A stretch of DNA of 48,971 bases. Origin: Syntrophomonadaceae bacterium. Its GTDB lineage: Bacteria; Bacillota; Syntrophomonadia; Syntrophomonadales; Syntrophomonadaceae. The DNA lies in the NCBI GenBank assembly GCA_018432955.1, contig JAHDSE010000084.1, forward strand, positions 1 through 48,971, read 5' to 3'. Under the pieces are notes generated by a model that was not told the DNA's origin, ran no database searches, and was given only the letters and a program-made list of their open reading frames with translations. Each line of letters starts with the position of its first letter. Positions within the stretch are counted from its first letter, which is position 1. Below are positions 18,094-45,634 of this stretch, in pieces. The translations under genes and the position numbers were made by a program.

Positions 18094-18714
18094 TTAAAAA
18101 ACTATCATATAGAGTATACCGCCTAAAAAGTTTGCCAAAGGCAGAAACACTTTTGATGCAATACCGGTGACAATAAATAGCAAAAGAAGCAGTGGTCCAT
18201 ATTGTTCCAGGGAATACAAAGCCTGAGCACCCGAATCCGGCAGTAAGCCGGCCAGTATTTTGGAACCATCCAGTGGCGGCAAAGGTATCAGGTTAAAGGC
18301 TGCGAGAATTAAGTTAATCTGGATCAAGGGCTGTACCATAGCCAACGAAATATTTGCCCATTCATAAGCCTGATAGGGAATAAGAAGCTTCAGCAGTATC
18401 ATGCCAATAAAAGCCAATACTATATTCATTCCCGGTCCAGCCAAAGATACCAGCATCATCCCCGTTTTAATGCTTGTACCTTTAAAATTCAGAGGATTTA
18501 CCGGAACCGGCTTGGCCCATCCGAAATGGAAGATAAATAACATTAAAAACCCTATAGGATCAATATGGGGGAAAGGGTTCAGGGTTAGTCTGCCATAGCT
18601 GTATGCAGTCTCGTCTCCCAGCCAGTAAGCCACTTTCCCATGGGCATATTCGTGAAATGTCAGAGCAATGATAATAGCCGGCAATGCTATCATCATACTA
18701 GTTATGGTCTGCAC
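18094..18714 (-). CDS. Site-2 protease family (peptidase M50) membrane metalloprotease
   Basis: An HEYAHG (HExxH) motif lies within the first TM region, and the protein is polytopic. Its start overlaps the stop of the upstream gene by 17 nt. Confidence 0.85.
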   Translation of the reverse strand: MQTITSMMIALPAIIIALTFHEYAHGKVAYWLGDETAYSYGRLTLNPFPHIDPIGFLMLFIFHFGWAKPVPVNPLNFKGTSIKTGMMLVSLAGPGMNIVLAFIGMILLKLLIPYQAYEWANISLAMVQPLIQINLILAAFNLIPLPPLDGSKILAGLLPDSGAQALYSLEQYGPLLLLLFIVTGIASKVFLPLANFLGGILYMIVF

Positions 18715-21337
18715 CTAAAAACCGCCCCTCTTTCATCCATTTTTGCACTGTTTCTATTTCATCTTCGCGACTGCTGACTTTTTCATCAAGCCTGAAATTA
18801 TATAGCTCTGCAAAAACCCGGCTGAATGCAGGACCTTCTTTGAGTCCCAGTTCTTTCAGATCATTACCGTTTATCTCCACCTTGACTCTATCTTTGAGTT
18901 CAATATAGCGGGCCAGGTTTTCCCATGCTTCTTCTTCTCTTACCAGTAATAGCAGATACACAATATTTTCTTTATACCAGCTTCCCAGGGTTCTGTCTAT
19001 CTCACTGGCCGGACAATCCGGTCTTTTCATCAAAGCCTGGGCTACTGCCGGAACTTGACGGGATTCGCATATGCACAAATGGGCATATTTGTCAAAAGGA
19101 TACCTTGCCAGTATCTGTTCCACTTCCTCCCTGCTTAAGCGGGCCAGAAGTATTATAAAGTACACAAGCCAGGATTTTACGTTATTTCTGTAATGTCTTT
19201 CTTCCCACCAGGCAGTCATGATCGGAACCCTTTTCAGGGTTATTCGGTTAAGGTGTTCCAGCTTCACTTCCGGTAGAATATACTTCCACACTCCGATATC
19301 TTTCATGCGGTCCAGAGCCAGGCCAGGGTCTTTTTCACTGAGAATAAGTATTAGTTCGCTCATTACCCTTTTGTAGGAAAGCTTGCCCAGCATCCGGCGT
19401 TCAATAGCATCTCGTGCAAAACGCAGGGTATCTTCCTCAATGGTAAATTTATAACGCTGTTCAAAACGAATTGCTCTGAGAATTCTGGTAGGATCCTCAA
19501 CAAAACTCATATTGTATAGAATACGGATATAACCTTTTTCCAAATCCCTGCGACCGCCAAAATAATCGATAAGATTCCCAAATCTTTCGGGGTTTAAACA
19601 TATAGCCAGGGTATTAATGGTAAAATCCCTGCGATACATATCCTCCCTTATAGATGACTTTTCCACCCTGGGTAAAGCCGCTGGGAATTCATAATACTCG
19701 GTCCTGGCAGTAGCCACATCAATTTTACTGCCGTCGAGCAAAAAAACTACGGCTGTTCTGAATCTCTCGTGGATACGTGCCCTGCCTCCCAACACCTCAG
19801 CCAGATTCCGGGCCAGAATCTCTCCGTCTCCCTCCACTACCAGATCAATATCAAAATTGGGTACCTGCAGAAAAAGATCCCTGACAAACCCTCCAACAGA
19901 ATAGACCGTACAGTTCATCCCTTCAGCCAATTCTCCTGCCACTTGTAATATGGACAGTATTTTGGATGGTAAACGCTCTTCCATTATGTCCAGGCAGTTC
20001 TCCTGCTCGTCCCCGCTGAAGGAATAGAGAACCTCATGGTCTTCAGGATAGTCTTCACCATGGAGAGTTCTTAATATATCAGTACGGGATACTATTCCTA
20101 TCAGTCTTCCATCCTCGATTACCGGTAACCTGCCAATATCGTTCTCCACCATTATTTTTTGTACTTCGCCAACTGTAGTATCCGGTATAACCGACAAGAC
20201 AGCACTGGTCATAAAGCCTTTTACCGGTGCATGCTCCAGTTCGTGAACCTTGGCTTTGTCTACATCTCTCCGGGAAATAACCCCTATCACTTTGTCTTCA
20301 TCAACTACCGGCATACCCGTATGCCCGTATCTCAACATTATTCGTCCCGCTTCCTCCATGCTTATGTACATGGGAATAGTCTTAACCGGGCTGGACATAA
20401 TATCAGATACCATCAATGCAGGACTGACTTTATCCCCCAGTGCTTCCATCAATAATTGAACAACTTCTTCGGTAGACTTTTTCTTTACTACAGCTGATGC
20501 TGCTTTTTCATGTCCCCTTCCACCTACAACTTTCAAAACATCGTTTATCTTTATGTTGTTTGTCCGGCTTCTGCCTACAACATTAACCTTACCCTGCATC
20601 GAGGCAACTACGAAAACTACATCAGAGTTTTCGACTTCCAGCAAGCGATAGCTGACCATATCCAGTCCAGGTATAAAATCATTGCTTTCAGAAACTGCCA
20701 GAACAACATCCATGTTTTTTATTCGGTAATGGCGCGCTGAATTAAGCAGTTCCTGCAGGAGCTGTCTTTGCTCCCCGGAAAAGGGTTGTTCCATAAAATT
20801 GGCGACTACAGAGAGATTAGCCCCCCGACTCAACAAAAAGGCAGCAGCCGAAAGATCCCTGGGCGTTGTAGAACTGAACAAGAGGCTCCCTGTATCCTCA
20901 TATATTCCCAGGGCCAGAATAGTAGCATCAAAACCGCTAATACCAATATTACGAGCAATGATTTCTTCAACCAGTATAGTGGTTGCTGCTCCAACTTGAT
21001 GTACTTCTTTAATACTGCCCGGTAAATCATCAGGTGAAGACGGATGGTGGTCATAAATGTGAAAATCCAGACCATCTCGTCTGGCTAAGTCCTTGAGGTG
21101 TCCGAGGCGATTGGCATTGGCAGTATCGACAACTATCATACGCTCAACACTATCAAGTGCTATTTCTTTGGGACTCCTTATCATTAATAAATCCTTGTAA
21201 AGCGCCATAAATTTCTTGACATTCTTGGAAAGTGTTCCCGAAAACACTTTAACAGCAGCAGGATATAGCTTTCCAGCTGCAACCATACTGGCCAGACCGT
21301 CAAAATCGACGGCATTATGAGAAGTAATTATTTCCAC
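18698..21337 (-). CDS. DHH/DHHA1 phosphoesterase - CBS pair - poly(A) polymerase/CCA-transferase-family nucleotidyltransferase fusion protein
   Basis: N-terminal SHNAVDFDGLAS and YDHHP (DHH) motifs, two CBS-like repeats, then GGFVRDLFL...DIDLVVEGD and RRDFTINTLA nucleotidyltransferase motifs, and a C-terminal helical region. Confidence 0.85.
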   Translation of the reverse strand: MEIITSHNAVDFDGLASMVAAGKLYPAAVKVFSGTLSKNVKKFMALYKDLLMIRSPKEIALDSVERMIVVDTANANRLGHLKDLARRDGLDFHIYDHHPSSPDDLPGSIKEVHQVGAATTILVEEIIARNIGISGFDATILALGIYEDTGSLLFSSTTPRDLSAAAFLLSRGANLSVVANFMEQPFSGEQRQLLQELLNSARHYRIKNMDVVLAVSESNDFIPGLDMVSYRLLEVENSDVVFVVASMQGKVNVVGRSRTNNIKINDVLKVVGGRGHEKAASAVVKKKSTEEVVQLLMEALGDKVSPALMVSDIMSSPVKTIPMYISMEEAGRIMLRYGHTGMPVVDEDKVIGVISRRDVDKAKVHELEHAPVKGFMTSAVLSVIPDTTVGEVQKIMVENDIGRLPVIEDGRLIGIVSRTDILRTLHGEDYPEDHEVLYSFSGDEQENCLDIMEERLPSKILSILQVAGELAEGMNCTVYSVGGFVRDLFLQVPNFDIDLVVEGDGEILARNLAEVLGGRARIHERFRTAVVFLLDGSKIDVATARTEYYEFPAALPRVEKSSIREDMYRRDFTINTLAICLNPERFGNLIDYFGGRRDLEKGYIRILYNMSFVEDPTRILRAIRFEQRYKFTIEEDTLRFARDAIERRMLGKLSYKRVMSELILILSEKDPGLALDRMKDIGVWKYILPEVKLEHLNRITLKRVPIMTAWWEERHYRNNVKSWLVYFIILLARLSREEVEQILARYPFDKYAHLCICESRQVPAVAQALMKRPDCPASEIDRTLGSWYKENIVYLLLLVREEEAWENLARYIELKDRVKVEINGNDLKELGLKEGPAFSRVFAELYNFRLDEKVSSREDEIETVQKWMKEGRFLGADHN

Positions 21338-21522
21338 AACAAAACTCCTATTCTAAGATACCTGCATTATATCACAAAACACTGGAAGATGAAGGATAAG
21401 CCCCAGGCCCAGTTTACCAGGATAAGAAAAAACAAACATCTTTTTCTCCTGTCCGGATGTCAGCCAGGAAGATATTCAAAAGGCTTTTGGACCTAAACAA
21501 TAGAGCTTATTTTTTATTTTGG

Positions 21523-21683
21523 AAAGTCAAGAACCAGGTTTAGCAACCTGGCTCTTGGAGTACTCTGATTTATTAATTATTAGTGCTGGAGTATTACAAG
21601 CTTTCCAGCTTTGTGTCATTCATTACCAGATCCTCTTATCAAGTCGGCAAAACCCTCATTTGCAGCCCCCGGCCCTTTAAGAG
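21523..21683 (-). pseudogene. Frameshifted relic of a lysA 3' end plus its downstream hairpin; direct repeat of 30554-30723
   Basis: By-eye alignment to the genuine lysA 3' end shows about three quarters identity. Conceptual translation gives LKGPGAANEGFADLI and EDLVMNDTKLESL-stop, against lysA LKPAMVLVNEGSADLI and EDLIRNDRMVARL-stop, with the stop codons aligned. A deletion of about 19 nt breaks the frame. The hairpin GAACCAGGTT-TAGC-AACCTGGCTC is conserved. Confidence 0.75.
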
Positions 21684-22603
21684 CCTGAGACGATCTTTCC
21701 GGTCAGAGAGGTATCATAGCCTATATGCTGTTCAACCGCCCGTTTATATGCGCTAGAGTTTATAACTGCCTGTATCTGCTGCCATTCAGGCTTTTCTGCT
21801 GTTTCCTGAAGAATAACCAGATCAAACCGTTCCTTAAACAGGGGCACAAAATCCAAACCCATCCTTTGAGCTGCAAATTGAATGCCAATACCGAAATCCG
21901 CTTCTCCATTAGCAACCTTAAGTGCAACTCCCCAATGAGTCTTTTCTTCATTTTCATAGCCGTGAATCTGGCGGATTGGTATTTCGTTTTCCATCAAATA
22001 TTGATCTATTCTTAAACGGGTGCCGGAGCCTCTCTGCCGGTTTACAAAGCGAAGACCTTTTTTGCTTATATCTTCCCAGGATTTGATATTGTGTTTATTG
22101 CCTGCAGGGACTATCCAACCCTGGGACCTTTGCACCAGGTTAACAACCGTATAAGCTTCAGCCAGAAGGATGTGTTCTACGAAGGGTATATTATATTCCT
22201 GTAATTTTTTATCCCAAAGATGAATACCCGTTACTTGCGCTTCTCTGTGATAAAGAGCAATCAAGCCTTGCATACTACCTTTAAAAACCGTCTTAAGGGA
22301 AAAAGTAGAAGAGGAGTGATTCAAAAACTCTGCCAGCAGTTCAACGGATAGATCATGGCTGCCCATAAAACAAAAGCCATTATCTGAAGATACATCCTCG
22401 TGCGCCTCAGAATGCTCCTGGGGGCGTTTTTCACCTGAGTCTCCCTGCAAGTATTGCATTAGTAAATCATAATCAATACGTATTTTCCTTCCAATACGCT
22501 TAGAGGGGATTTCTCCCCGTTTTATTAGCTCGTACAGGGTGTATCTGGAAATTTTAAGTATTTGAGCAGCTTCCTCCGGGGTAAGGGGCGGATGATCAGA
22601 AAT
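21677..22603 (-). CDS. Transcriptional regulator: excisionase/MerR-type HTH fused to a molybdate/tungstate-type periplasmic-binding-protein-like domain
   Basis: The PBP-like body runs from 21677 to 22459. The 48 codons upstream are open in frame and encode LTPEEAAQILKISRYTLYELIKRGEIPSKRIGRKIRI (HTH_17-like). There is no ATG, GTG or TTG between the upstream TGA (22612-22610) and the ATG at 22459. The best candidate start is the ATT at 22603, which has GAAGGAG 10 nt upstream. Confidence 0.7.
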   Translation of the reverse strand: MSDHPPLTPEEAAQILKISRYTLYELIKRGEIPSKRIGRKIRIDYDLLMQYLQGDSGEKRPQEHSEAHEDVSSDNGFCFMGSHDLSVELLAEFLNHSSSTFSLKTVFKGSMQGLIALYHREAQVTGIHLWDKKLQEYNIPFVEHILLAEAYTVVNLVQRSQGWIVPAGNKHNIKSWEDISKKGLRFVNRQRGSGTRLRIDQYLMENEIPIRQIHGYENEEKTHWGVALKVANGEADFGIGIQFAAQRMGLDFVPLFKERFDLVILQETAEKPEWQQIQAVINSSAYKRAVEQHIGYDTSLTGKIVSGS

Positions 22604-22914
22604 GGGTAGTCAGCTCCTTCCGCATATCAGTAAATAATCTCAATTAACAAATCTATTTCATTTCAATTATACTGCTTTCTATCATTGTTTTAAAAATAAC
22701 ATTCAGGGTAGGAGCATGTCAACTTACTACGGATTATTAAAAACCCAAATATCTCCTTTAATATCCAAGATGTTCTGATTGTCTTAATAATTATAAACTT
22801 ACCATTAATATTGGCATAATTAAAGATGTCTATGCTTTTTTTGCCGCAAGTAGTTTTCTTATTTGAGTTTTCCTGAGCAATATTAGATTTCCAGGTTCTT
22901 CACTTAAATCCTAT

Positions 22915-22946
22915 AGAAAAAAAAAGCTTCCCGCAAAAGCGGGAAG
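22915..22946 (-). terminator. Intrinsic terminator of the fdh operon
   Basis: Minus strand reads CUUCCCGC-UUUU-GCGGGAAG followed by a run of nine U, 155 nt downstream of the fdhE stop. Confidence 0.85.
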
Positions 22947-23100
22947 AAAAAGATTGGGATTGTATGAAAAAAGCCTAAGCTCTTTCATCAATAATAATAT
23001 GTGCACTCAGCCTGTTTGCACTGTCCAACAAAGACATACCTCCAGACTATCCTTCAGTGCGATAAATTCCTCAATATATTAAAATTAATAATATTTGGCT

Positions 23101-23874
23101 TTAGTTAATTTGATTATCTTTTCTAACCTGTTCTTCTATCCAGCGTTCGGTTGCATAATTCAACGGAAGCGTTCTCATATCTTCCCATAAATAATCTACA
23201 GCAGAAAGCTTGCGCCCATCTATTTCCTTGAAATACTGCCCGCAGATCTGACAAACACCCATTTCAATTCCTGGAAAAGCTTCATTGTCAAAATATAAGA
23301 GTTTCTTGGAATCTTCACTACCGCAAAACAGACAACCGGTACGTTGTACAGGCCATTCAAAGCTGCATGTGCTGCAGTGCATCACTCTTTTGCCATCAGG
23401 TTCGGTCAGAACCGCCAGGGTTGAAATTTCGCCACAAACCGGGCAAGCCACCACATTCTTCTCTGGATTCTCGGACGCACGGGGATTGAATTTTTGCTCC
23501 GGCACTCCCTTTTCACTGACGGCCTGGCTGGCAAGCTTTGCCACACCACTAACTGCCATTTGAAAACGGCTTGCCATTTCCGGGTTCATCGTGTTTTTAC
23601 CCAGCTTCAACTGCTCCCACAGCTCCTGCAGTTTTAAATCAGTTATTTCTACTTTGGCAGAGATATTTAATCTCTGCCAAAGCTCAATAATCGCATCCTG
23701 GGGTAAATCAGTAATAGGTAAATATGGGGATTCTTTATTCATGCTCAAACCAGCCAGCCAATATGAACCACGTTTCCGTATCCATTCATCAACCTCAAGT
23801 TTGAGCTGACGATACTTCTGGTAGGCTTGTTCCAGGTTCTCAGTAACTAGCAATTGGTTTTTTTCTGCAGTCAT
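23101..23874 (-). CDS. fdhE: Formate dehydrogenase accessory protein FdhE
   Basis: Four CxxC pairs (CPVCG, CSTCS, CLFCG, CQICG) with the FdhE spacing. It is the last gene of the fdh operon. Confidence 0.85.
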   Translation of the reverse strand: MTAEKNQLLVTENLEQAYQKYRQLKLEVDEWIRKRGSYWLAGLSMNKESPYLPITDLPQDAIIELWQRLNISAKVEITDLKLQELWEQLKLGKNTMNPEMASRFQMAVSGVAKLASQAVSEKGVPEQKFNPRASENPEKNVVACPVCGEISTLAVLTEPDGKRVMHCSTCSFEWPVQRTGCLFCGSEDSKKLLYFDNEAFPGIEMGVCQICGQYFKEIDGRKLSAVDYLWEDMRTLPLNYATERWIEEQVRKDNQIN

Positions 23875-23887
23875 TAAAATTCTCCTC

Positions 23888-24550
23888 TTATTCTCTTATG
23901 GTTTCTTTAGCCTCTTCGTTATACCATTTTTCGTAGTGTTCATAAGCAAACTTGGCCGGAACCCAACCAGTAAAAATACCCTTTAAAGCCTGATTCGAAT
24001 CAGGATGAAGTACTCCCAGATATAGATGGGCAATCAAAAGAGCAGCCATAAAGAGTGCGCAGGCAGCATGTATGGGATATGCCCACTGTACCACTACAGC
24101 TGGCATGGAAGAAGCAAACCACATAATGTAACCGCTGATAACAATACCAAGTGTTCCAAGAATGGTAAACATAGAGTTCAACTTTTCACCACCGTTAAAC
24201 TTACCCTGGGGCGGAAATGGTTTATGCCCGCCAAAGAATTCTATACCAAAATTCTTGGCATGAGCCAAATCAGCTTTACGGAAGTTAACGACATCTTTAA
24301 ACCAGCGCCGCATCTGGCGTGCGCCTTGTCCTTTGCCAATAAATCCTACAAGCATACCCAACGTAAACAGCACAGCAACGACACGATGAATATTTCTGCT
24401 TACTTGAATCCCGCCGAATATGTTCATGGCCGGTTGAAAAGCGATGACCAGCACGCCCAGCCCGGTAAAAAGCAACAATAGAAATGCAATGCCGTGACAC
24501 CAGTGAACAAAACGCTCTCCTGCTGAGAAACGATATACCTCTTTTGCCAT
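23888..24550 (-). CDS. fdnI: Formate dehydrogenase gamma subunit (membrane b-type cytochrome)
   Basis: Four TM helices with conserved His residues (FVHWCH, NIHRV, IAHLYLGVLH), placed directly after the Fe-S subunit gene. Confidence 0.85.
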   Translation of the reverse strand: MAKEVYRFSAGERFVHWCHGIAFLLLLFTGLGVLVIAFQPAMNIFGGIQVSRNIHRVVAVLFTLGMLVGFIGKGQGARQMRRWFKDVVNFRKADLAHAKNFGIEFFGGHKPFPPQGKFNGGEKLNSMFTILGTLGIVISGYIMWFASSMPAVVVQWAYPIHAACALFMAALLIAHLYLGVLHPDSNQALKGIFTGWVPAKFAYEHYEKWYNEEAKETIRE

Positions 24551-24552
24551 AT

Positions 24553-25365
24553 CTACATACCTCCTTCGTCGTGGGATTCTGCGATATTTTTCGCTCTGTT
24601 GGCATAATTACCCCTGAGTAAATTGGCAATAACCCCTACAGTGATAGCTGCAGCCGAAGCACCAATTGCGATACCACCCAGCGGATGAACTATATCTTTC
24701 CAAAGAGTCAAAGATATCGGCGATGTGGGATTTAAAGGAAGCCCATAAGCATCTGGCCTATCCTGCAGCAGATAAACATAAGTCGTGCCGCCCATTAATT
24801 TATCACCATACAAATGTGCTTTCGGATTTGTTAATTGAAGCTCTGCTACCCGTGCCTGGGCTTTGGGCATCAGCTCATCACGATCGCCAAACTGTATCGC
24901 TCCGGTCTGACAGACTTGAGCACATGCCGGCTTCATTCCATTTTCAACGCGGTCAATACAACCATTGCATTTGTACATTTTATTAGTGGCTTCATCAATC
25001 TTGGGAACACCCCATGGACAGTTCGCCACACAATAACCGCAACCAATGCATTTGTCTCTGTCTACCAAAGTATATCCTGATTCTGTCTTATAGATGGCAT
25101 CGGACGAACAAGCCTTCATACAAGCAGGATCATCGCAATGGAAGCACTGTAATTTCAGCATATTAAAATGCATTTTATTATCATAGTATTCTTCTTTGAA
25201 CCTGACATAGGTATAGGTAGTGGGTGTAAAATCAGCCTGGGTCTGATAGCTGCTTATGCGTCGTGTCTTTTCAGCCGGAAGGTCGTTCCAGGCTTTGCAG
25301 GCCACTGAACACGCCTTACACCCGGTACATAATGAAGTATCAATAAAAACCATTTTTTTTGCCAT
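24553..25365 (-). CDS. fdnH: Formate dehydrogenase beta subunit (4Fe-4S clusters, C-terminal membrane anchor)
   Basis: Multiple CxxCxxCxxxC ferredoxin motifs and a C-terminal TM helix. I chose the ATG at 25365 (AAGGAGGG upstream), which falls just after the alpha-subunit stop codon. Confidence 0.9.
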   Translation of the reverse strand: MAKKMVFIDTSLCTGCKACSVACKAWNDLPAEKTRRISSYQTQADFTPTTYTYVRFKEEYYDNKMHFNMLKLQCFHCDDPACMKACSSDAIYKTESGYTLVDRDKCIGCGYCVANCPWGVPKIDEATNKMYKCNGCIDRVENGMKPACAQVCQTGAIQFGDRDELMPKAQARVAELQLTNPKAHLYGDKLMGGTTYVYLLQDRPDAYGLPLNPTSPISLTLWKDIVHPLGGIAIGASAAAITVGVIANLLRGNYANRAKNIAESHDEGGM

Positions 25366-25367
25366 CG

Positions 25368-28300
25368 TTAAGCCCTCCTTATGTTGACAAGACAGCATTT
25401 ATACTCAGGAGTTCCAGCTCCGGGATCCAGAGCAGCCATTGTCACATTGTTCGTACTGGGACCAGGACTCAAGCTGGCAAAACCCCAGCTCCACGGCATA
25501 CCGATAGTTTCCTGATCTTTACCGTTGATTTTAAGAGTCTGGATCCGGTCGGTCACCAGGGCACGTACTACTAACTTGCCGCGGGCAGAGGATACTTCGA
25601 CTTCATCCCCTTCTTTGACACCTATTTTATTAGCCAGGTTTTTACTTATTTCAGCATAAGGCTCAGGTGCTATCTCATTCAGCCAGGGAATATTGCGGGT
25701 AATCGCCCCGGCACAGAAGTGCTCGACAACCCCATATGAAGTAAGAACATAGGGATATTCACCCGGGTTGCCAAATTCAGTTGAGATAATCTTGGCACAG
25801 GGATTGTTCTGCACACTGGGATGCAGGATATTGGATGTCGGGCTTTCAATCGGTTCATAGAATTCAGGCATCGGCCCATCCACCGTCATGCCTGCTCCAC
25901 GGATCGGAACAGACGCAATGGATTCTGTCGGAGTAGCAACTGCACCGCTCATATAAGTAGCTGCAAACAATCGTCCCACGCCTTCCGGATTCTGTTTGAA
26001 ACCCGTCTTGCCTTCTGGAGTATCAGGACCTTTGGTCTTGTCGACCACGTCAGGTCCGTCATTCCCTACCCATAGATTCTGCGCAGCATCCCACCAGATC
26101 AGCTTGCGCCTGGAATCAACCGGCTGGCCTTGGGCATCACAGGAGCAGCGGTTATAAAGGACGCGGATATTGCCAGGCCAGGCAAAAGCATAATCTTTGT
26201 TCAGGCCCAGACCTGTAGGATCGGCATTACCGCGGCGATCAGCCAGGTTTTGGCCTTCTGGTGTTACCCCGGTATATAACCAGTTTCCAGTGGAAACCGT
26301 GCCGACCGGGGCTGACAGGTATTCGCCTATCGTGGCAATCGGTTTGCCGGTAGTGTCATTATACCCATTGAGCTCCTGAAGAACCTTTAATGGTTCGGCT
26401 TCATGCGGGCCATAATCCCAGTTGGCTTTCAAAATCGGTTCATCCTTGGGATCAGTGCTTCCGGCATAAAGAGCACGCACTTTCTTAAAAATGTGATCCA
26501 GCATATCCAAATCAGGGTGTACGCCGTTGAGAGGTGGCAAAGCCACTTCTTTCCACTGAATCAGGCGGGAAGAATTGGTCATGCTGCCGGCCTTTTCATA
26601 TACGAAAGCAGCGGGCAGGAAGATTACCTCGGTCTGAATCTCCGCCGGATTTAACCCTTCTTCTTTCCAGAACTGGGCGGTTTCTGTGTTGAATATGTCG
26701 GCCACTACCAGCATTTCCAGCGCAGACAGGCCTCGGGCCACCAGTTTCCTGTCCGGAATGGAAACTGTGGAATTGGAACCCCAGTTGAGGAGAAGCTTAA
26801 ACTGTCCTTCTTCCATTTTACCGAAGAAATGGGTCTGAGTCGGCATATTGGAAGGATTGTTCTTGGGCAGCCACTGATATCCGTATTCGTTTTCGGCTGT
26901 GGCGTTTTTGCCAAACCAGGCCTTGAGCAGAGCTACCAATGGTCTATGTTGAACCGAGCCTTTATTCCTTGCAAAATCATTCAGGGTTTTTTCTTGATTA
27001 GTGGGATAAGGAATATACCCCGGCAGGTTGGCATTCAAATTGGCCATATCGGTAGAACCCTGAACATTGGGTTCGCCTCGCAGAGCCTGTATGCCTCCGC
27101 CAGCCTTGCCCATATTGCCCAGAAGCAACTGAATGATCGCATAGCAGCGAATACCCTGCACCCCGGTGGTATGCTGGGTCATGCCCAGGGCATAGAAGAT
27201 GTTGCCAGGATTAGCTGCAGCAAAGGTATCGGCTATCAGCTTGATTTTGGCAACTGGTATTCCGCTGATGCTTGAAGCTACATCAAAGGTATATCTGGAA
27301 TAGTGGGCTTTAAGCTTTTGGAAAACACAGTCCGGATCATCCAGGCTATTTGCCTTTACCGGTTTACCCTCAGCATCCAGCTGATAGGCCCAGCTTGCGT
27401 AATCATACTTCTTGGTTTCAGGATTAAATCCGGAAAACATGCCATCTTTAAATTCAAAATCCTTGCTTACCTTATAAAGCGCATTGGTAAAATTCATAAC
27501 ATAGAATTCATTATAAAGCCTATTTTCGATATAATAATTGATCATTGAACCCAGGTAAGCTATATCGGTTCCGGGACGAATCTGAGCAAAGATATCCGCC
27601 TGGGAAGCGGTACGTGTAAAACGCGGGTCGACAACAATCACCTTGGCGCCTTTCGCCCGGGCACGGTTTACCCATTTCATGGCAATTGGATGACATTCCG
27701 CACAATTGCTGCCTGCGATCAAGAAACACTCAGAGTTCTGCATATCCTGCCAGGAGTTGGTCATGGCACCGCGTCCAAATGAAGGTGACAAACTCGCCAC
27801 CGTGGGCGCGTGTCAGATACGTGCCTGGTGTTCGTGATACGGTGTCCCGATCAGGCGGGCAATCTTGGAAAGCAGGTAGCTTTCTTCATTGTCGACCTCG
27901 GCCGAACCTAACATACAAATACCTTCAGCCCGGTTAACCGTAACTGTTTCTTTCTCTCCGGTTTTGGTATTTGTAATCTCATCAGTGCTCGTCCAGGTCT
28001 TATCTCTGACCTCCTTGATTTTCTTGGCAATGCGATCATAAGCTTCTTCCCAGGAAATATCCACGAATTTGTCAGAGCCCGGGGCACGATAAAGCGGATT
28101 TTTCGGACGTTCCGGAGAGTAAGCCACCTGTGCCAGGCTGGCTGCCTTGGGGCAAAGGCTTCCTTCATTGATGGGATTGTCCGGGTTCCCATCGAGGTGG
28201 ACCAGTTTTCCGTCCTTAACATGCAGGAGAAGCCCGCATCCACCTGAGCAAAAGTGACAGATACTGGGTATCTTTGTGCATCCTGCCAGCTTCAGTGCAT

Positions 28301-28409
28301 ATCCCTGTGCGGCAGTTGCTTCCAGGTTAAACCCCACTCCAGAAGCAACTACGGCAGCGGATAAACCTGAAAGCTTCAGAAATCCACGACGAGTAACTTT
28401 CATCACCAA
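25368..28409 (-). CDS. fdnG: Formate dehydrogenase alpha subunit: Tat-exported molybdo/tungstopterin selenoprotein (1013 aa, with TGA 27815-27813 read as Sec)
   Basis: The two ORF-track pieces (27813..28409 and 25368..27800) are in the same frame and separated only by a TGA. The junction reads YHEHQARI-U-HAPTVASLSPSFGRGAMTN, the conserved FdnG/FdhF Sec active-site context. The N-terminus carries a twin-arginine signal (TRRGFLKLS) and a CxxCxxGC 4Fe-4S motif. Confidence 0.92.
27767..27815 (-). promoter_or_regulatory. Sec UGA codon plus a candidate bacterial SECIS hairpin
   Basis: The mRNA reads UGA CACGCGCC-CAC-GGUGGCG-AGUU-UGUCACC-UUCAUUU-GGACGCGGUG. The apical hairpin starts 11 nt after the UGA, the same spacing as in E. 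coli fdhF. A lower helix CACGCGCC/GGACGCGGUG closes it, with bulges. Confidence 0.6.
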
Positions 28410-28803
28410 TCTCTACCTCCCTTAATATACTACTAAAACCTGCAAATACTCCTTTTGCCAGAGTACCTGATTGCATTTACGCATAAATTTTGTAAATTTA
28501 TGGTGGATATGAACCCCTGAGTAATTTTGCGAATAATGGCCTGATTACATTAATCTGTATTCTGATCACCAGACTTTCCCTGCCTTATCTGGTATTTGCT
28601 TCAACTCCTTATTCATGCTCACCCGGAGTCATTCCCTCCTCTCATATTTAAAATATTAAAAATCCATTATTTTTGAATAATTAAGCAAATAAATCGATGG
28701 GATAAGCAAAACGGTTCAAGCCAACGCCACAAAAAAACCATTCTTGGATTTTATTACCAATATAGCCCAGCTACTATCTATCAATTCTCAGCAAGGCTTT
28801 TAG

Positions 28804-28894
28804 GCTCCTTTCCAACAATGGGAGGCCAATCCGTTTCCAAATTAACCCAACGGCTTGCTATCGTGGCTTTTGCTTTAGATAGAAAGCTCGGAGC
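28804..28894 (-). promoter_or_regulatory. Candidate Moco/Tuco (molybdenum/tungsten cofactor) riboswitch aptamer upstream of the fdh operon
   Basis: Minus strand reads GCUCCGAGC...GGAAACGG...GGCCUCCC...GGAAAGGAGC. It carries the hallmark CUCCGAGC 5' element and the GCCUCCC 3' element. P1 is GCUCC/GGAGC, and nested helices GCUUU/AAAGC, GCCA/UGGC and CCGUU/AACGG can be drawn. The genomic context (Moco-dependent enzyme, moeA) fits. Confidence 0.6.
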
Positions 28895-29058
28895 TATACA
28901 ATTGTCTTAGCAATACATCTACCAATAAAACTATTACAACATGTCTCATGCTACTTAATGCTACTATTTGAAACTAAATATAACATAAACCAATTATTTT
29001 GTCATTAATTAAAATAAATTTTTTTATACCAATACAACTAACATTCAATTATAATTAA

Positions 29059-29066
29059 TGTATAAT
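29059..29066 (+). promoter_or_regulatory. Possible extended -10 promoter element for moeA
   Basis: TGTATAAT lies in a very AT-rich tract about 75 nt upstream of the moeA ATG. I found no convincing -35 element. Confidence 0.3.
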
Positions 29067-29140
29067 ATAATAAACATAAATAATATAAACTTTGCGTTTA
29101 TTAACCAAGAATAAATCATAGCGGTAGAGGTAGGTTGTTT

Positions 29141-30379
29141 ATGAATAGACTTCAGTTAGTAAATGATCAATTATTGGAACCTTTTGATTTGGACGAAGCG
29201 GTTTCTATCAGTTGCGACAGTATTCAAGCCATGGACACCGAGTGCATGCATATATATGATGTATACAGGCGGGTGGCCGCAGATAATATAGCCAGTTTTA
29301 TTGATATACCCAATTTTGACCGTTCGGCAATGGATGGCTACGCAATTGGCAAGACTGATCTAAAAAGACTCCAAGCTCGAAGACCGTTGCGTTTGAGAGT
29401 AGCTTCTATTATTGGAGCCGGTTCAATTGAAAACAGGCCAATAAAGCCCGGGGAAACCTGTAGAATTATGACCGGGGCTTTGCTTCCAGAAGGCAGCGTT
29501 GCGGTTATTAAACAAGAGGATGTTGAGATAATAAATGAAAACTATATAATTGTCAGCTTCAGGCCTCGGCGGGGTGAAAATATTCGAAGATCCGGCCACG
29601 AATTGAGGTCTGGAGACATAGTTGCAGCCAGGGGGCAGGTTTTAAAATCGGAAATCCTGGAAAGAATAGCTGCTTGTGGAATAGAAAGGATTCCAGTATA
29701 TAAAGTGCCTCGCGTATATATTATAGATACGGGAAATGAGTTGCTTTTACCTGGGTCCCCCATCAAAAAAGGATGCATATATTGCAGCAACCGTAGCCTA
29801 ATAGCATGCAAAATAACCAGCAGCGGAGCTTTACCATTGCTGTCACCTTCTGTGATTAACGATGATCTGCAAACCATCGTAACTGCAATAAAAATGGCAG
29901 CCCAGGTCTCTGACATGGTAATAGTAAGCGGGGGAACCGGCAACGGCCTTTTCGACCTGGTTGGCAACGCATTCGAGTATTTGAATGCCCCGCTTCTTTT
30001 TAAAGGCATAAACGTCTTTCCTGGAAAAAGTACTTCTGCTGCGCTTCTCAATGGTAAACTTGTTTTCAATCTGTCCGGGAGCCCCTCTGCAGCCGGGATG
30101 TTGTTTGAAGCTCTGGTAAAACCTGCCCTGCTTAAACTAAAAGGAGAGTCATTGTATAAAGGGGATTGGTTTGATATAGAGCTGGCCAGCCCCATTGATC
30201 ATTTAAAACCTGGTCGCAGCCTGCACCGGGGAGAAATGATTATTAAACAGGGACGTGCCTACGCTCTGCCGGTAAGCCGAAAAGACATTAATACAGGAAA
30301 AATTCCTTTACTGTTGGATATAAACAAAAGGTCGGAAAAAGAAGCAGTCATCGTTAAAGCTAAACTAATTGCAGATTAA
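29141..30379 (+). CDS. moeA: Molybdopterin molybdotransferase MoeA
   Basis: SAMDGYA motif, VIVSGGTGNG (MoCF-biosynthesis domain), and about 410 aa. I prefer the ATG at 29141 (AGAGGTAGG RBS) to the ORF-track TTG at 29135. It is the only convincing plus-strand gene in the window. Confidence 0.9.
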   Translation: MNRLQLVNDQLLEPFDLDEAVSISCDSIQAMDTECMHIYDVYRRVAADNIASFIDIPNFDRSAMDGYAIGKTDLKRLQARRPLRLRVASIIGAGSIENRPIKPGETCRIMTGALLPEGSVAVIKQEDVEIINENYIIVSFRPRRGENIRRSGHELRSGDIVAARGQVLKSEILERIAACGIERIPVYKVPRVYIIDTGNELLLPGSPIKKGCIYCSNRSLIACKITSSGALPLLSPSVINDDLQTIVTAIKMAAQVSDMVIVSGGTGNGLFDLVGNAFEYLNAPLLFKGINVFPGKSTSAALLNGKLVFNLSGSPSAAGMLFEALVKPALLKLKGESLYKGDWFDIELASPIDHLKPGRSLHRGEMIIKQGRAYALPVSRKDINTGKIPLLLDINKRSEKEAVIVKAKLIAD

Positions 30380-30553
30380 GCGCTGGAACTTCCCTCTTAT
30401 CGATAATAAGGTTGCAGCCGCCTGCAAAGGGATAGAACTATTCGCGTTATTACTATACGCCACTCGATCAACATATCCTTCATACGCCTCAATTGCAGCA
30501 TTTGAATAATTCCTCGACCTTTACCTTTTTTCTCGTACTGTCATTTTTTACAG

Positions 30554-30723
30554 CCTGAGAGCCAGGTTTATCAACCTGGCTCTCAGGCGTGCTCTGATAT
30601 AAATTAGTGTTGGGATTATAATCTTGCCACCATTCTGTCATTTCTTATCAGGTCCTCGTAATCTTCCCGTTTAATAATCAAGTCGGCAGAACCCTCGTTT
30701 ACCAGAACCATTGCCGGTTTAAG
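30554..30723 (-). repeat. Intact copy of the direct repeat: lysA 3' end plus a perfect 15-bp-stem hairpin
   Basis: CCTGAGAGCCAGGTT-TATC-AACCTGGCTCTCAGG spans 30554-30587, with no U-tract on either strand. Positions 30616-30723 are the last lysA codons. This copy is homologous to 21523-21683. Confidence 0.75.
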
Positions 30724-31923
30724 CAAACGGTTATAGTTGCTGGCCATGGAATAAGTGTAAGCACCGGTTGCAAAAACTGCCAGAATATCTCCTGATTCCA
30801 CCCTGGGCAATTGAGCATCCCAGATCAGCATATCCCCGGATTCACAGCACTTGCCCGCAATGGAAACGGTCTCCACAGGGCTCTGATCTGCCTTGTTAGC
30901 CAGTATAGCCAGGTATCTGGCATTATAAAGCGCAGGACGCGGGTTATCAGTCATTCCCCCATCAACCGCCACATATTTTCTTATTCCTTTAACCTCTTTA
31001 AATGAACCGATAGTATAAAGGGTTATTCCTGCAGGACCAGCAATAGCCCTTCCCGGCTCTACAATAACCCTGGGTATTTTTATACCCAGTTTCTCTGCTT
31101 TCTCCTTGACTGTAAGCATAACTGCTTTCGCCCACTCCGAGGGATCACACGGTTCATCACCATGATAATAATGAATCCCAAAACCGCCTCCCAGATCCAG
31201 TTCATCAAATTCATGAGCAAGAATCTCTTTAACTTCGCCCAAAAAGCCCATCATAATTGCAGTAGCATGCCTGAAGGACTCCATCTCAAATATCTGTGAA
31301 CCTATATGACAATGCAAGCCTATCAGATTAAGGCCCTCACTTTTGATAGCAGCCTTTACACCTTCCATAGCCTGCCCGTCACTAAGAGTAAAACCAAATT
31401 TGGAGTCTATCTGCCCGGTCTGGATATATTCATGGGTATGAGCCTCGACTCCCGGTGTAATCCGCAGCATTATATCCTGCTGCTTTTTTTCTTCCAGGCA
31501 TATGGAATTCAACAATTGAAGTTCAAAAAAATTATCTACTACTATACGGCTTACTCCCATTTCAAGAGCCATTTCTATCTCTTCGCGGCTTTTGTTATTC
31601 CCGTGAAAATAAACCCTTTCCATAGGAAACCCAGCTTTCATAGCTGTGTAGAGTTCTCCTCCAGACACTACATCAAGTCCCAGACCCTCTTCCTCAACCA
31701 TTCGGTAAACTGACAGGGTACTCAGCGTCTTGCTGGCATAGAGCACCATTGACTCCCCCAGCCTGTCAAATGCTTCTCTGAATTTCCGGCAATTTTGACG
31801 AAAGCCCTGCTCATCCAGTACCCATAACGGAGTACCGAATTCTTTTGCTATATCAAGGGTATCCATGCCCCCTATTTCGAGATGACCTTCAGCATTGATT
31901 TTCATAGTACCTGTAAGCTGCAA
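30616..31923 (-). CDS. lysA: Diaminopimelate decarboxylase
   Basis: GHLEIGG...FGTPLWVLD N-terminus, a YASKT PLP-lysine region, and CESGD near the C-terminus. I prefer the TTG at 31923 (GAGGAG 10 nt upstream, and an N-terminal length like Bacillus LysA). The ORF-track maximum start is 31941 and an ATG alternative lies at 31905. Confidence 0.92.
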   Translation of the reverse strand: MQLTGTMKINAEGHLEIGGMDTLDIAKEFGTPLWVLDEQGFRQNCRKFREAFDRLGESMVLYASKTLSTLSVYRMVEEEGLGLDVVSGGELYTAMKAGFPMERVYFHGNNKSREEIEMALEMGVSRIVVDNFFELQLLNSICLEEKKQQDIMLRITPGVEAHTHEYIQTGQIDSKFGFTLSDGQAMEGVKAAIKSEGLNLIGLHCHIGSQIFEMESFRHATAIMMGFLGEVKEILAHEFDELDLGGGFGIHYYHGDEPCDPSEWAKAVMLTVKEKAEKLGIKIPRVIVEPGRAIAGPAGITLYTIGSFKEVKGIRKYVAVDGGMTDNPRPALYNARYLAILANKADQSPVETVSIAGKCCESGDMLIWDAQLPRVESGDILAVFATGAYTYSMASNYNRLLKPAMVLVNEGSADLIIKREDYEDLIRNDRMVARL

Positions 31924-31963
31924 ATCCCCCACACTCCTCAAAATTCCTCATAAAATTGTGCTT

Positions 31964-31993
31964 ATTGTAACATTATCCTCCTGAAACAGTCAA
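31964..31993 (-). promoter_or_regulatory. Sigma-A-type promoter for lysA
   Basis: Minus strand reads TTGACT, an 18-nt spacer, then TACAAT. It lies between the tRNA-cluster terminator and lysA. Confidence 0.55.
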
Positions 31994-32045
31994 TAGAACA
32001 GGAGACGCATAGAACAGAGAACCTTCCCTTGTTCTACGCTCTAAT

Positions 32046-32075
32046 CTAAAAAAACCGTGGATATTCCACGGTTTT
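32046..32075 (-). terminator. Intrinsic terminator after the tRNA cluster
   Basis: Minus strand reads AACCGUGG-AAUAU-CCACGGUU followed by seven U. Confidence 0.8.
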
Positions 32076-32085
32076 CACATTTCTA

Positions 32086-32161
32086 TGGTGGGCGATGACG
32101 GGCTTGAACCGCCGACCCCCTGCTTGTAAGGCAGGTGCTCTCCCAACTGAGCTAATCGCCC
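32086..32161 (-). tRNA. tRNA-Val (anticodon UAC)
   Basis: The reverse complement GGGCGATTAGCTCAGTTGGGAGAGCACCTGCCTTACAAGCAGGGGGTCGGCGGTTCAAGCCCGTCATCGCCCACCA folds as a cloverleaf with anticodon loop CUUACAA and an encoded CCA. Confidence 0.95.
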
Positions 32162-32166
32162 TTTTA

Positions 32167-32241
32167 TGGTGACCCCTAGGGGACTCGAACCCCTGTTACC
32201 GCCGTGAAAGGGCGGTGTCTTAACCGCTTGACCAAGGGGCC
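32167..32241 (-). tRNA. tRNA-Glu (anticodon UUC)
   Basis: The reverse complement GGCCCCTTGGTCAAGCGGTTAAGACACCGCCCTTTCACGGCGGTAACAGGGGTTCGAGTCCCCTAGGGGTCACCA is near-identical in pattern to Bacillus tRNA-Glu, with an encoded CCA. Confidence 0.95.
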
Positions 32242-32333
32242 AAAACTGAAGTCGGAGGCGAACTGGATAAAATCGGCTATGCCTATTGCTACAATTATTC
32301 TGACTTCCGACCTCTGACATCTGACATCCAAAA

Positions 32334-32409
32334 TGGTGGGCCTACCAGGACTCGAACCTGGGACCAACCGGTTATGAGCCGGTGGCTCTTCCAACTGAGC
32401 TATAGGCCC
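32334..32409 (-). tRNA. tRNA with CAU anticodon; probably tRNA-Ile2 (lysidine-modified) rather than elongator Met
   Basis: The reverse complement is GGGCCTATAGCTCAGTTGGAAGAGCCACCGGCTCATAACCGGTTGGTCCCAGGTTCGAGTCCTGGTAGGCCCACCA. The acceptor stem GGGCCTA/TAGGCCC is the one typical of Firmicute tRNA-Ile. It is not an initiator, because it lacks the three G-C pairs in the anticodon stem. Confidence 0.9.
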
Positions 32410-32437
32410 GCGTATTCCGGGAAACCCCGCAAGAGTT

Positions 32438-32466
32438 AGTATATAAAATATCTCCGCAAAGGTCAA
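32438..32466 (-). promoter_or_regulatory. Sigma-A-type promoter for the Ile2/Glu/Val tRNA cluster
   Basis: Minus strand reads TTGACC, a 17-nt spacer, then TATACT, about 28 nt upstream of the tRNA 5' end. Confidence 0.6.
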
Positions 32467-32548
32467 TAGCAAAAGGCTATTATTCATAAATTCTGTGCAG
32501 ATAATATTTGCGGACCCCAGCAAGTTAAAATATTTCGGCTTGATTCAT

Positions 32549-32580
32549 TTAAAAAGCGGTAACTTTTGAGGGTTACCGCT
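32549..32580 (-). terminator. Intrinsic terminator after tRNA-Asn
   Basis: Minus strand reads GCGGUAAC-CCUCAAAA-GUUACCGC followed by UUUUU. Confidence 0.7.
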
Positions 32581-32591
32581 ATCTTTAACAA

Positions 32592-32666
32592 TGGCTCCCC
32601 GAGTAGGATTCGAACCTACAACCCTCCGGTTAACAGCCGGATGCTCTACCGTTGAGCTATCGAGGA
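32592..32666 (-). tRNA. tRNA-Asn (anticodon GUU)
   Basis: The reverse complement TCCTCGATAGCTCAACGGTAGAGCATCCGGCTGTTAACCGGAGGGTTGTAGGTTCGAATCCTACTCGGGGAGCCA folds as a cloverleaf with anticodon loop CUGUUAA. Confidence 0.95.
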
Positions 32667-37543: not shown

Positions 37544-37810
37544 TATTCCACCTCCGTATTATTTTCTATACTACAATATAGACCGAAAATCCTTTATTTA
37601 TAATCAGATATTTTCTTTTATAGAATGTATACATAATTAAGCATTTTGCACAATTGCTATTATCATATCATCAGGCAAAAGAGCCAGACCTGCATATCGG
37701 CAGACTGACCCTTTCTTGCTTTTTATAAAATTCAAGCATTATTTGTTTGCTATTCGCTCTAAAACGGACAGCAAAAACTGTACCCTTGTGTGCTTCAGTA
37801 ATATTTTAAT

Positions 37811-45180: not shown

Positions 45181-45375
45181 TAAAAAAACCCGTCTCCCAT
45201 GACAGGGACGGGTCTACCCGCGGTTCCACCCTGATTGGCCTGATGGCCCACCTCACAGAATTCAGGTTTTACTGACCAGAATGGCGTTCTTCCTGACAAC
45301 TCCAAAGCGCCTTCAAAAAGGTATCTCTGCCAGGTTTCCACCCCCCCTGGCTCTCTGAAGAGTTAACTCTTTTCT
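45181..45375 (-). promoter_or_regulatory. Glycine-specific T-box riboswitch leader of glyQS
   Basis: Minus strand carries Stem I with AGAGA and GGUGGAAA elements and a specifier region UGAA-GGC-G (Gly codon). The T-box sequence AAUCAGGGUGGAACCGCGGG lies at 45236-45217. It is followed by the terminator GACCCGUCCCUGUCAUGGGAGACGGGU and seven U. Confidence 0.88.
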
Positions 45376-45634
45376 ACTACTCTTTTTCATCATTGGAAAA
45401 CTTATTTATATTTTCAAAAATCCATAAATATTTTACCAGCAGCACTGATGCTTGTCAATCAAACCCTTATCTCCCGCAGGAAAATGTATTTAATGAGAAG
45501 CTTCCCCATGGCTATATATTTCCAATTAAGTTCTGGCAACGAATTCCACGAACCTCTTGCCCACCCTGAAAAAGGCTTTCCATTTCCACCAAGAGTCCGT
45601 ATTCATGCTCAAGTGTTTTCTTCTATCCCGGTTT

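Follow-up and report, generated by a model that had tools for sequence, protein, structure and literature searches.

In the 48,971-nt stretch of DNA analysed here (the window; contig JAHDSE010000084.1 of assembly GCA_018432955.1, from a Syntrophomonadaceae bacterium), a block of about 9 kb lies between two copies of the 3′ end of lysA, the gene encoding diaminopimelate decarboxylase. The block holds an operon for a membrane-bound selenocysteine formate dehydrogenase (FDH) together with moeA and a regulatory gene, and comparison with related loci showed that it is an old insertion, fixed in the species, into the last 35 codons of lysA. An earlier reading of the bare letters, referred to below as the original prediction, had described it as an element that integrated into the lysA 3′ end. 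The insertion and the displaced gene end proved to be real, whereas no sign of a self-integrating element was found.

The lysA repeat and the module between its copies

The lysA gene itself is intact (30616–31941; all genes of this locus except moeA lie on the minus strand). Its product aligns with full-length homologues, carries both Pfam decarboxylase domains (PF02784 and PF00278) and is 93% identical to protein P0002 of locus L081, and the gene has a promoter of its own that is conserved in L081, L108 and L001. The gene end at this position, copy A, is thus the functional one, as had been proposed.

A unit of ~165 nt, comprising the last 35 lysA codons, the 3′ untranslated region (UTR) and a strong hairpin, is present twice in the same orientation. 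In copy A (30553–30723), the last 35 codons and the stop codon occupy 30616–30723 and are followed by the 3′ UTR (30589–30615) and a hairpin with a perfect 16-bp stem (30553–30588). Copy B (21530–21681) consists of a dead lysA 3′ fragment (21594–21681, with its stop codon at 21594–21596), a 3′ UTR (21556–21593) and a hairpin with a 13-bp stem (21530–21555). MAFFT and local alignment paired 21530–21661 with 30558–30700, and the similarity reaches a common CTTAAA at 21681 and 30723, with an identity of ~76–77% that agrees with the three quarters estimated by eye in the original prediction. The formal alignment is significant: the local score of 86 compares with 18.7 ± 2.2 (maximum 26) for dinucleotide shuffles, and the best score among 630 other tiles of the window was 28. 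The hairpin is retained in both copies, as had been noted from the letters, and reads AGAACCAGGTT-TAGC-AACCTGGCTCT and AGAGCCAGGTT-TATC-AACCTGGCTCT; RNA folding of the lysA-sense strand gave −36.7 kcal/mol (z = −7.5) for copy A and −23.6 kcal/mol (z = −4.6) for copy B. Neither hairpin is followed by a U-tract, and a terminator scan flagged neither. Chance similarity and a dispersed hairpin of the repetitive extragenic palindromic (REP) kind were both ruled out, given a score far above the controls and a hairpin motif that occurs in the window at these two sites only.

Enclosed by the two copies is one complete module of the FDH-2 type, and Pfam, Rfam and tblastn searches upheld the gene content read from the open reading frames (ORFs): moeA, a molybdenum/tungsten cofactor (Moco) riboswitch, fdhA, the genes for the Fe-S and cytochrome b subunits, fdhE and a regulator with a helix-turn-helix (HTH) and a PBP-like domain. 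At the left end of the module (left and right follow the direction of lysA here and below), moeA (29135–30379, plus strand; Pfam MoeA_N and MoCF_biosynth) encodes molybdopterin molybdenum/tungsten transferase, is convergent with lysA and is 77–87% identical to the module moeA of L094, L101 and L104. The riboswitch (28789–28905; RF01055, 69.5 bits against a gathering threshold of 36) forms the leader of fdhA (25368–28409), the gene for the catalytic subunit, with Pfam domains Molybdop_Fe4S4, Molybdopterin and Molydop_binding. This gene has a twin-arginine (TAT) signal, TRRGFLK, and an in-frame TGA for selenocysteine (Sec) at 27813–27815 within the motif ARI-U-HAPTV, and its homologue in L101 is annotated as one 1011-aa product. 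Then come fdhB (24553–25398; Fer4_11 and Form-deh_trans), for the 4Fe-4S subunit with its C-terminal membrane anchor, the cytochrome b subunit gene (23888–24550; Ni_hydr_CYTB) and a gene for an FdhE-like accessory protein (23101–23874; FdhE_central). Judged by its subunit set and motifs, the encoded enzyme is a membrane-bound Sec FDH of the FDH-2 or FdnGHI type.

The ~500 nt between fdhE and the regulator gene (22604–23100) are intrinsic to the module: they align with the same gap in L100, L101, L104 and L094, and hold a conserved terminator, the regulator promoter and a Shine-Dalgarno sequence. The terminator (22927–22946, minus strand) is of the canonical intrinsic type, CTTCCCGCTTTTGCGGGAAG plus a T-run, and shows strong conservation in every copy of the module; because a conserved promoter follows it, the regulator constitutes a separate transcription unit. 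The regulator gene (21677–22603) was delimited by Pfam (HTH_17 and PBP_like), tblastn with P0122 and P0130, its sequence and 3′-end alignments, and its product is of a kind predicted to sense molybdate or tungstate. Its HTH_17 domain is intact and in frame, and no ATG, GTG or TTG follows the upstream TGA (22610–22612); translation probably starts at the ATT at 22601–22603, 10 nt behind GGAAGGAG. As there is no standard start after the TGA, gene callers give a regulator of 260 aa without the HTH. Regulators in several related lineages are also called at 265–282 aa without this domain.

The empty site and the module in other genomes

The nearest genomes are those of Syntrophomonas DTU018 and DTU019 (73% and 66% LysA identity, respectively), in both of which a DHH-CBS-CCA nucleotidyltransferase gene (878–886 aa) directly follows lysA. 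These distant relatives, loci L001 and L002, have the order that the original prediction had expected wherever the module is absent. In the window, this native downstream neighbour lies beyond copy B (18698–21337, minus strand; identified by Pfam and by alignment with L001 and L002), and its promoter (21350–21380) is conserved in relatives. The sole closer LysA in the protein database is P0002, encoded on the 1.9-kb Logan contig L081, where a single lysA end with its hairpin is followed by ~95 nt with homology to what lies after copy B in the window and then by a convergent DUF2889 gene; moeA and FDH genes are absent from this 1.9-kb contig. In L108–110 (DHH protein 73% identical), the order is secDF, lysA, convergent DUF2889, DHH. 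Together, L081 and L108–110 indicate that the ancestral locus of the subclade was lysA, hairpin, convergent DUF2889, DHH. A conserved regulatory duplication common to the relatives was ruled out, since these carry a single copy. Besides P0002, no LysA was found between 77% and 100% identity and no DHH homologue between 74% and 100%, and a metagenome DNA-pattern scan for close relatives or a donor returned three chance matches only. Within the species, the window arrangement is present in 10 of 10 contigs listed, from a total of 19 with an identical regulator protein, and is therefore fixed as far as the sampled contigs show.

The old convergent neighbour has left a trace in the window. A tblastn search with the DUF2889 protein of L081 recovered the last 21 codons and the stop codon of this gene at 21438–21503 on the plus strand (IFFSCPDVSQEDIQKAFGPKQ, then stop; 19 of 21 residues identical, E = 6.6e-9), preceded in frame by further stop codons. 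L081 and L108–110 have an intact DUF2889 gene that converges with lysA. Copy B therefore stands in the native flank, between the lysA tail and the tail of the old convergent neighbour, which identifies it as the displaced end. A comparison of the DUF2889 relic with L081 showed differences at 3 of 69 nt only; the loss of the remaining ~145 codons is therefore recent and separate from the event at lysA.

This flank bears on the simplest way to double a gene end, a tandem duplication that started inside lysA and whose second set of downstream genes was later lost. Such a history is very improbable here: the sequences after copy A and copy B are unrelated, the ancestral DUF2889 flank follows copy B, and the deletion would have had to restore the junction of hairpin and DUF2889 exactly. 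That a lysA 3′-end relic can arise in this manner is demonstrated by Saccharibacillus sp. O16 (L030:11131–12390), where an independent ~1-kb tandem duplication of the last ~200 nt of lysA, its terminator and a Cu_amine_oxidN1 gene has produced the order lysA end, terminator, gene X, lysA′ relic, second terminator and gene X paralogue, the relic having an internal ~60-nt deletion. Among 82 lysA loci screened, the window and L030 are the only two with a second lysA end, which shows that the lysA end is not a common attachment (att) site.

As the original prediction had suggested might be seen, the module occurs in other genomic contexts, usually beside nuoEF. Regulator homologues at 74–91% identity are common in Syntrophomonas. 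In L094–098, the module follows genes for MoeA, NuoE and NuoF and precedes those for FMN reductase, an HD protein, DnaG and SigA; in L101–103, it stands between the end of a NuoF-type gene (seen in L101 and L102) and a DUF1287 gene; in L104–106, between NuoE and NuoF genes (seen in L104 and L105) and an ABC transporter gene; and in L100, it is followed by glutaredoxin and TfoX genes. A circularly permuted version is found in L114:6400–15004 (GCA_964635975.1), which runs from the regulator through a convergent moeA to fdhA–fdhE and shows no regulator beyond fdhE. Such an order suggests that modules of the genus have been rearranged by way of tandem duplication or circular intermediates. In L115 (1–2472), a regulator 88% identical to that of the window stands beside a very different FDH (FdhE 52% and cytochrome b 41% identical), which indicates that the regulator gene has been exchanged between different FDH operons. 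No lysA-like sequence adjoins the module in the other lineages examined. These contexts mark the module as native to the genus but positionally unstable, and recombinase genes accompany it in none of those examined. Module proteins of the window and L094 are 77–91% identical and housekeeping proteins 53–88%, values that are uninformative on horizontal transfer.

Such instability raises the possibility, an unlikely one in our view, that the FDH-2 module is a recurrently mobile, cargo-only unit, which would travel both inside a genome and from one genome to another, through a circular or linear intermediate and without a recombinase of its own, and settle wherever homology to the host had been picked up. 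The variable right-hand neighbours, the L114 permutation and the L115 regulator beside a different FDH fit this idea; if it held, the lysA locus would be a case caught in the act, complete with reciprocal hybrid repeats.

Junctions, relic and mobility genes

The right junction was placed at 21682–21690 by 3′-end alignments with the regulators of L094, L100, L101, L104 and L114. Homology to these regulators extends to …AAGATCGTCT--CAGGCT and is succeeded at once by lysA codon L400 (CTTAAA); microhomology at this joint does not exceed 3 nt. The homologues end in LTGK(I/T)VY(E/Q)TPHS...RP and a stop codon, and the window breaks off after CAGGCT. Its regulator is ~10 codons short at the C-terminus, ends in GKIVSGS and uses a TAA (21677–21679) within the CTTAAA of the relic; the earlier observation that the regulator stops inside the relic was therefore correct. 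These alignments show the right edge to be no att core but an illegitimate joint, at which the regulator was truncated. The repeat starts exactly at this joint and stops exactly after the hairpin. A move of the module from an L094-like site upstream of the FMN reductase gene was also considered and rejected, the missing regulator end not being found at 37544–37810. On the left, homology to other modules ends at the moeA stop codon (30379), and the insert's left junction is contained in the 173-nt spacer between hairpin A and this stop (30380–30552), for which neither blastn nor tblastx gave a match in the fetched loci or the rest of the window.

Copy B translates, as originally read, to LKGPGAANEGFADLI and, further on, to EDLVMNDTKLESL, with a stop codon aligned to that of lysA. 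Its frame is indeed broken in this strain, by a gap of 17 nt relative to copy A and not ~19 nt, and the gap is composite: a 3-nt loss is joined by a 14-nt deletion (window 21640–21655, compared with L084:10779–10883) that is found only in this strain and in L082. In five further contigs of the species, the relic is in frame and uninterrupted over 33 codons, LKGPGAANEGFADLIIKRDYEDLVMNDTKLESL followed by stop. A second 3-nt deletion lies further upstream in copy B, so both of the older indels are 3 nt long. The original prediction had seen in the substitutions a diverged allele rather than random decay. This holds in that the ancestral relic is in frame, but the relic lacks the PAMVLV motif, and its substitutions by codon position (1:4:6, counted by eye) show no significant bias. 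Of the 120 LysA homologues listed, all but one have the P-A of this motif, and variation at its other positions is conservative only. During most of its divergence, the relic did not serve as a functional end of LysA.

No recombinase domain was detected by Pfam in the main ORFs or in the scanned alternative ORFs of at least 92 aa, a scan that left out the gap between riboswitch and moeA (28906–29134); the earlier statement that no integrase or transposase is visible inside the block thus stands. A decayed integrase in the fdhE–regulator gap was ruled out, as this gap aligns with other modules and holds the conserved terminator and promoter. The GC content, GC content at third codon positions and codon usage of the module genes are within the spread of the flanking genes, so the suggested check for compositional skew revealed a native composition and no foreign signature.

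These results weigh on the view that a true integrative element targeted the lysA 3′ end through an attP site with a lysA-like arm and has since lost its mobility genes, leaving the cargo behind. The topology is that of attL and attR: one copy would be the replacement end of the gene, and the other the native end, displaced but still in its own flank. In addition, the ancestral relic indels are all in frame, and the differences from L081 described below run in the direction of reciprocal hybrids. Nevertheless, we regard such an element as improbable. No recombinase or remnant of one was seen in the frames and gaps scanned, and the composition is native. The cargo regulator is cut at the junction, so entry of the module into the element would need a separate illegitimate event. 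Moreover, the module resides in several other lineages without a lysA-like flank, and in the 82 lysA loci the one further second end, in L030, is a plain tandem duplication, with no integrase association in any case.

Divergence of the copies and the route of insertion

The lysA genes of the window and L081 differ at 45 of 183 four-fold degenerate sites, and this divergence of 24.6% was used as a neutral yardstick. Left of approximately the last 8 codons, copy A differs from L081 at 5 of 105 nt and at none of 11 four-fold sites, and copy B by ~15 substitutions and 2 indels in ~83 nt. In the 3′ UTR, copy B is ~92% identical to L081 and has 1 unique change, against 9 in copy A that include a 5-nt and a 1-nt indel. 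Over the hairpin, A, B and L081 form roughly a star, and beyond it only copy B is homologous to L081. The direction of this pattern is as expected if A combined a native head with an incoming tail and B an incoming head with the native tail; this is a weak test and not statistically decisive. A reciprocal crossover, if there was one, would lie near AAGAAATGACA. At the distances of the more remote relatives (66–73% LysA identity), the UTRs are not alignable and do not discriminate the native copy. The unconstrained pairwise distances all amount to ~20–25%, which makes the event about as old as the split from the species of L081. Relative to the rest of lysA (45 of 172 four-fold sites differing), the absence of four-fold differences from L081 among the last 36 codons (30616–30723; 0 of 11, p ~0.045) could reflect chance, local constraint or a small conversion tract.

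The explanation that we favour, with about an even chance of being right, is homology-anchored integration, without an integrase, of a DNA in which the module was linked to a lysA end. Derived from within the population or from a very close relative, the incoming DNA would have carried a lysA 3′ end with its hairpin, the 173-nt spacer and the module, and would have recombined with the chromosomal lysA by homology, presumably near the last 8 codons. A circularised molecule could have entered by a Campbell-type single crossover; the alternative route is homology-facilitated illegitimate recombination (HFIR). In either case, lysA would have retained a working end (copy A), and the other end would have been displaced 9 kb downstream (copy B), beside DUF2889 and the DHH-CBS-CCA gene. 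The far end of the incoming DNA would have been joined illegitimately, at a cost to the regulator of ~10 codons and with a new stop codon inside the relic. The relic would then have decayed, through loss of PAMVLV, two 3-nt losses and, in this strain, the 14-nt deletion, and most of DUF2889 would have been deleted later.

Several observations weigh against this account. Purifying selection on copy A alone accounts for the left-hand match of this copy to L081. Counted from the last codons to the end of the hairpin, ~13 changes are unique to A, 7–8 to B and 5–6 to L081, and a relative-rate test was not significant. The contrast in the 3′ UTR was picked post hoc, and constraint from the convergent DUF2889 transcript could explain the conserved UTR of copy B. 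Only one close relative, the 1.9-kb contig L081, enters the comparison. The fetched loci included no donor in which a lysA end is linked to moeA and the module, and none of them holds a homologue of the 173-nt spacer. Finally, A and B have diverged by ~25%, as much as the neutral yardstick for the window and L081, so a duplication in situ near the time of the split fits equally well.

Such an in situ origin could have come about by template switching, in which replication stalled just past the lysA hairpin and switched to the module at its original nuoEF-adjacent locus on the same or a sister chromosome. Copying would have proceeded from the moeA flank to near the regulator end and then returned to lysA codon 400, leaving two initially identical native lysA ends. 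We consider this the main alternative, real but doubtful. It accommodates the exact end of the repeat at the hairpin and the illegitimate joint with its microhomology of at most 3 nt on the other side, and it needs no donor linkage, integrase or foreign composition. The rough star of unique changes and the near-neutral pairwise distances are also compatible with it, as is a module that is native to the genus and has been rearranged without mobile-element genes elsewhere, including in L114. It leaves unexplained why the copy A 3′ UTR is the odd one out, with copy B so close to L081, and why copy B has diverged further on its left (~15 of 83 nt) than on its right (~8 of 89 nt). The source of the 173-nt spacer was not found for this route either and, to our knowledge, 9-kb insertions by template switching are poorly documented in bacteria.

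Homology-anchored integration has a laboratory counterpart. In Escherichia coli, single crossovers of circular molecules missing part of a cloned gene end gave rise to duplications of 109–950 bp without an integrase (Amarir-Bouhram et al. 2011, PMC3240628). The present locus resembles this Campbell-type integration in that the insert is flanked by a direct target duplication (here ~165 nt), no site-specific recombinase is involved and one of the repeats completes the gene. It differs in that the published cases are laboratory plasmids in E. coli, whereas here a 9-kb energy-metabolism operon was inserted in a natural, old and now fixed event, for which a circular intermediate is presumed. HFIR and the orphan 3′ ends of Rhs, contact-dependent inhibition (CDI) and type VI secretion system (T6SS) effector loci (Kirchberger et al. 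2017, PMC5361080) offer a second parallel, with a homology anchor in a conserved gene on one side, an illegitimate joint on the other and an old 3′ end pushed downstream and retained as a relic. In those loci, however, toxin tips turn over under diversifying selection, often repeatedly, whereas here the function of the housekeeping gene is unchanged and the cargo is an unrelated operon. Unlike the event at lysA, HFIR also usually deletes recipient DNA and does not duplicate it (PMC3240628). Integrase-borne islands in the 3′ ends of tRNA, tmRNA and protein genes share the bracketing direct repeats, the newly supplied gene 3′ end and the empty site in relatives, but the block at lysA has no integrase, no recurrent att site and no compositional signature, and its cargo gene is truncated at the junction. 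The event looks like a one-off recombination accident and not like a classical island.

As regards the cargo, the closest characterised counterpart is FDH-2 of Syntrophomonas wolfei (Swol_0797–0800; Schmidt et al. 2013, PMC3582634), a membrane enzyme that faces outwards, is induced by butyrate and has been proposed to function in reverse electron transport. The window module has the same subunits, with a catalytic subunit that carries Sec and a TAT signal, an Fe-S subunit and a cytochrome b, and appears to differ in location only, being placed between lysA and the DHH-CBS-CCA gene and not beside nuoEF-type genes. For syntrophy, an FDH-2 operon that is positionally unstable across Syntrophomonas bears on how syntrophs reshuffle a key FDH operon. 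The locus is a natural, well-documented new case of an already known kind of event, and may be a natural example of the laboratory mechanism. A core energy operon was relocated or acquired without mobile-element genes, and a doubled gene end and a shortened cargo gene are the only trace of this. Homology-anchored integration is known mainly from the laboratory and may be under-recognised in genomes, as island finders seek integrases and skewed composition. There is also a consequence for annotation, in that gene-end relics can provide neighbouring genes with stop codons, as happened to the regulator here.

The upstream side of lysA has been rearranged as well. A cluster of tRNA genes (tRNA-Asn, tRNA-Met, tRNA-Glu and tRNA-Val; 32086–32666, minus strand; ARAGORN and Rfam), itself behind sigA and dnaG, adjoins lysA across 31942–32090. 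In relatives, the upstream neighbour is secDF, according to gene calls in L108 and size-matched ORFs in L001 and L002, which places a second synteny break at the lysA promoter. Elsewhere in the window, a T-box leader (45201–45399, minus strand; RF00230, 100.5 bits) lies upstream of glyQS.

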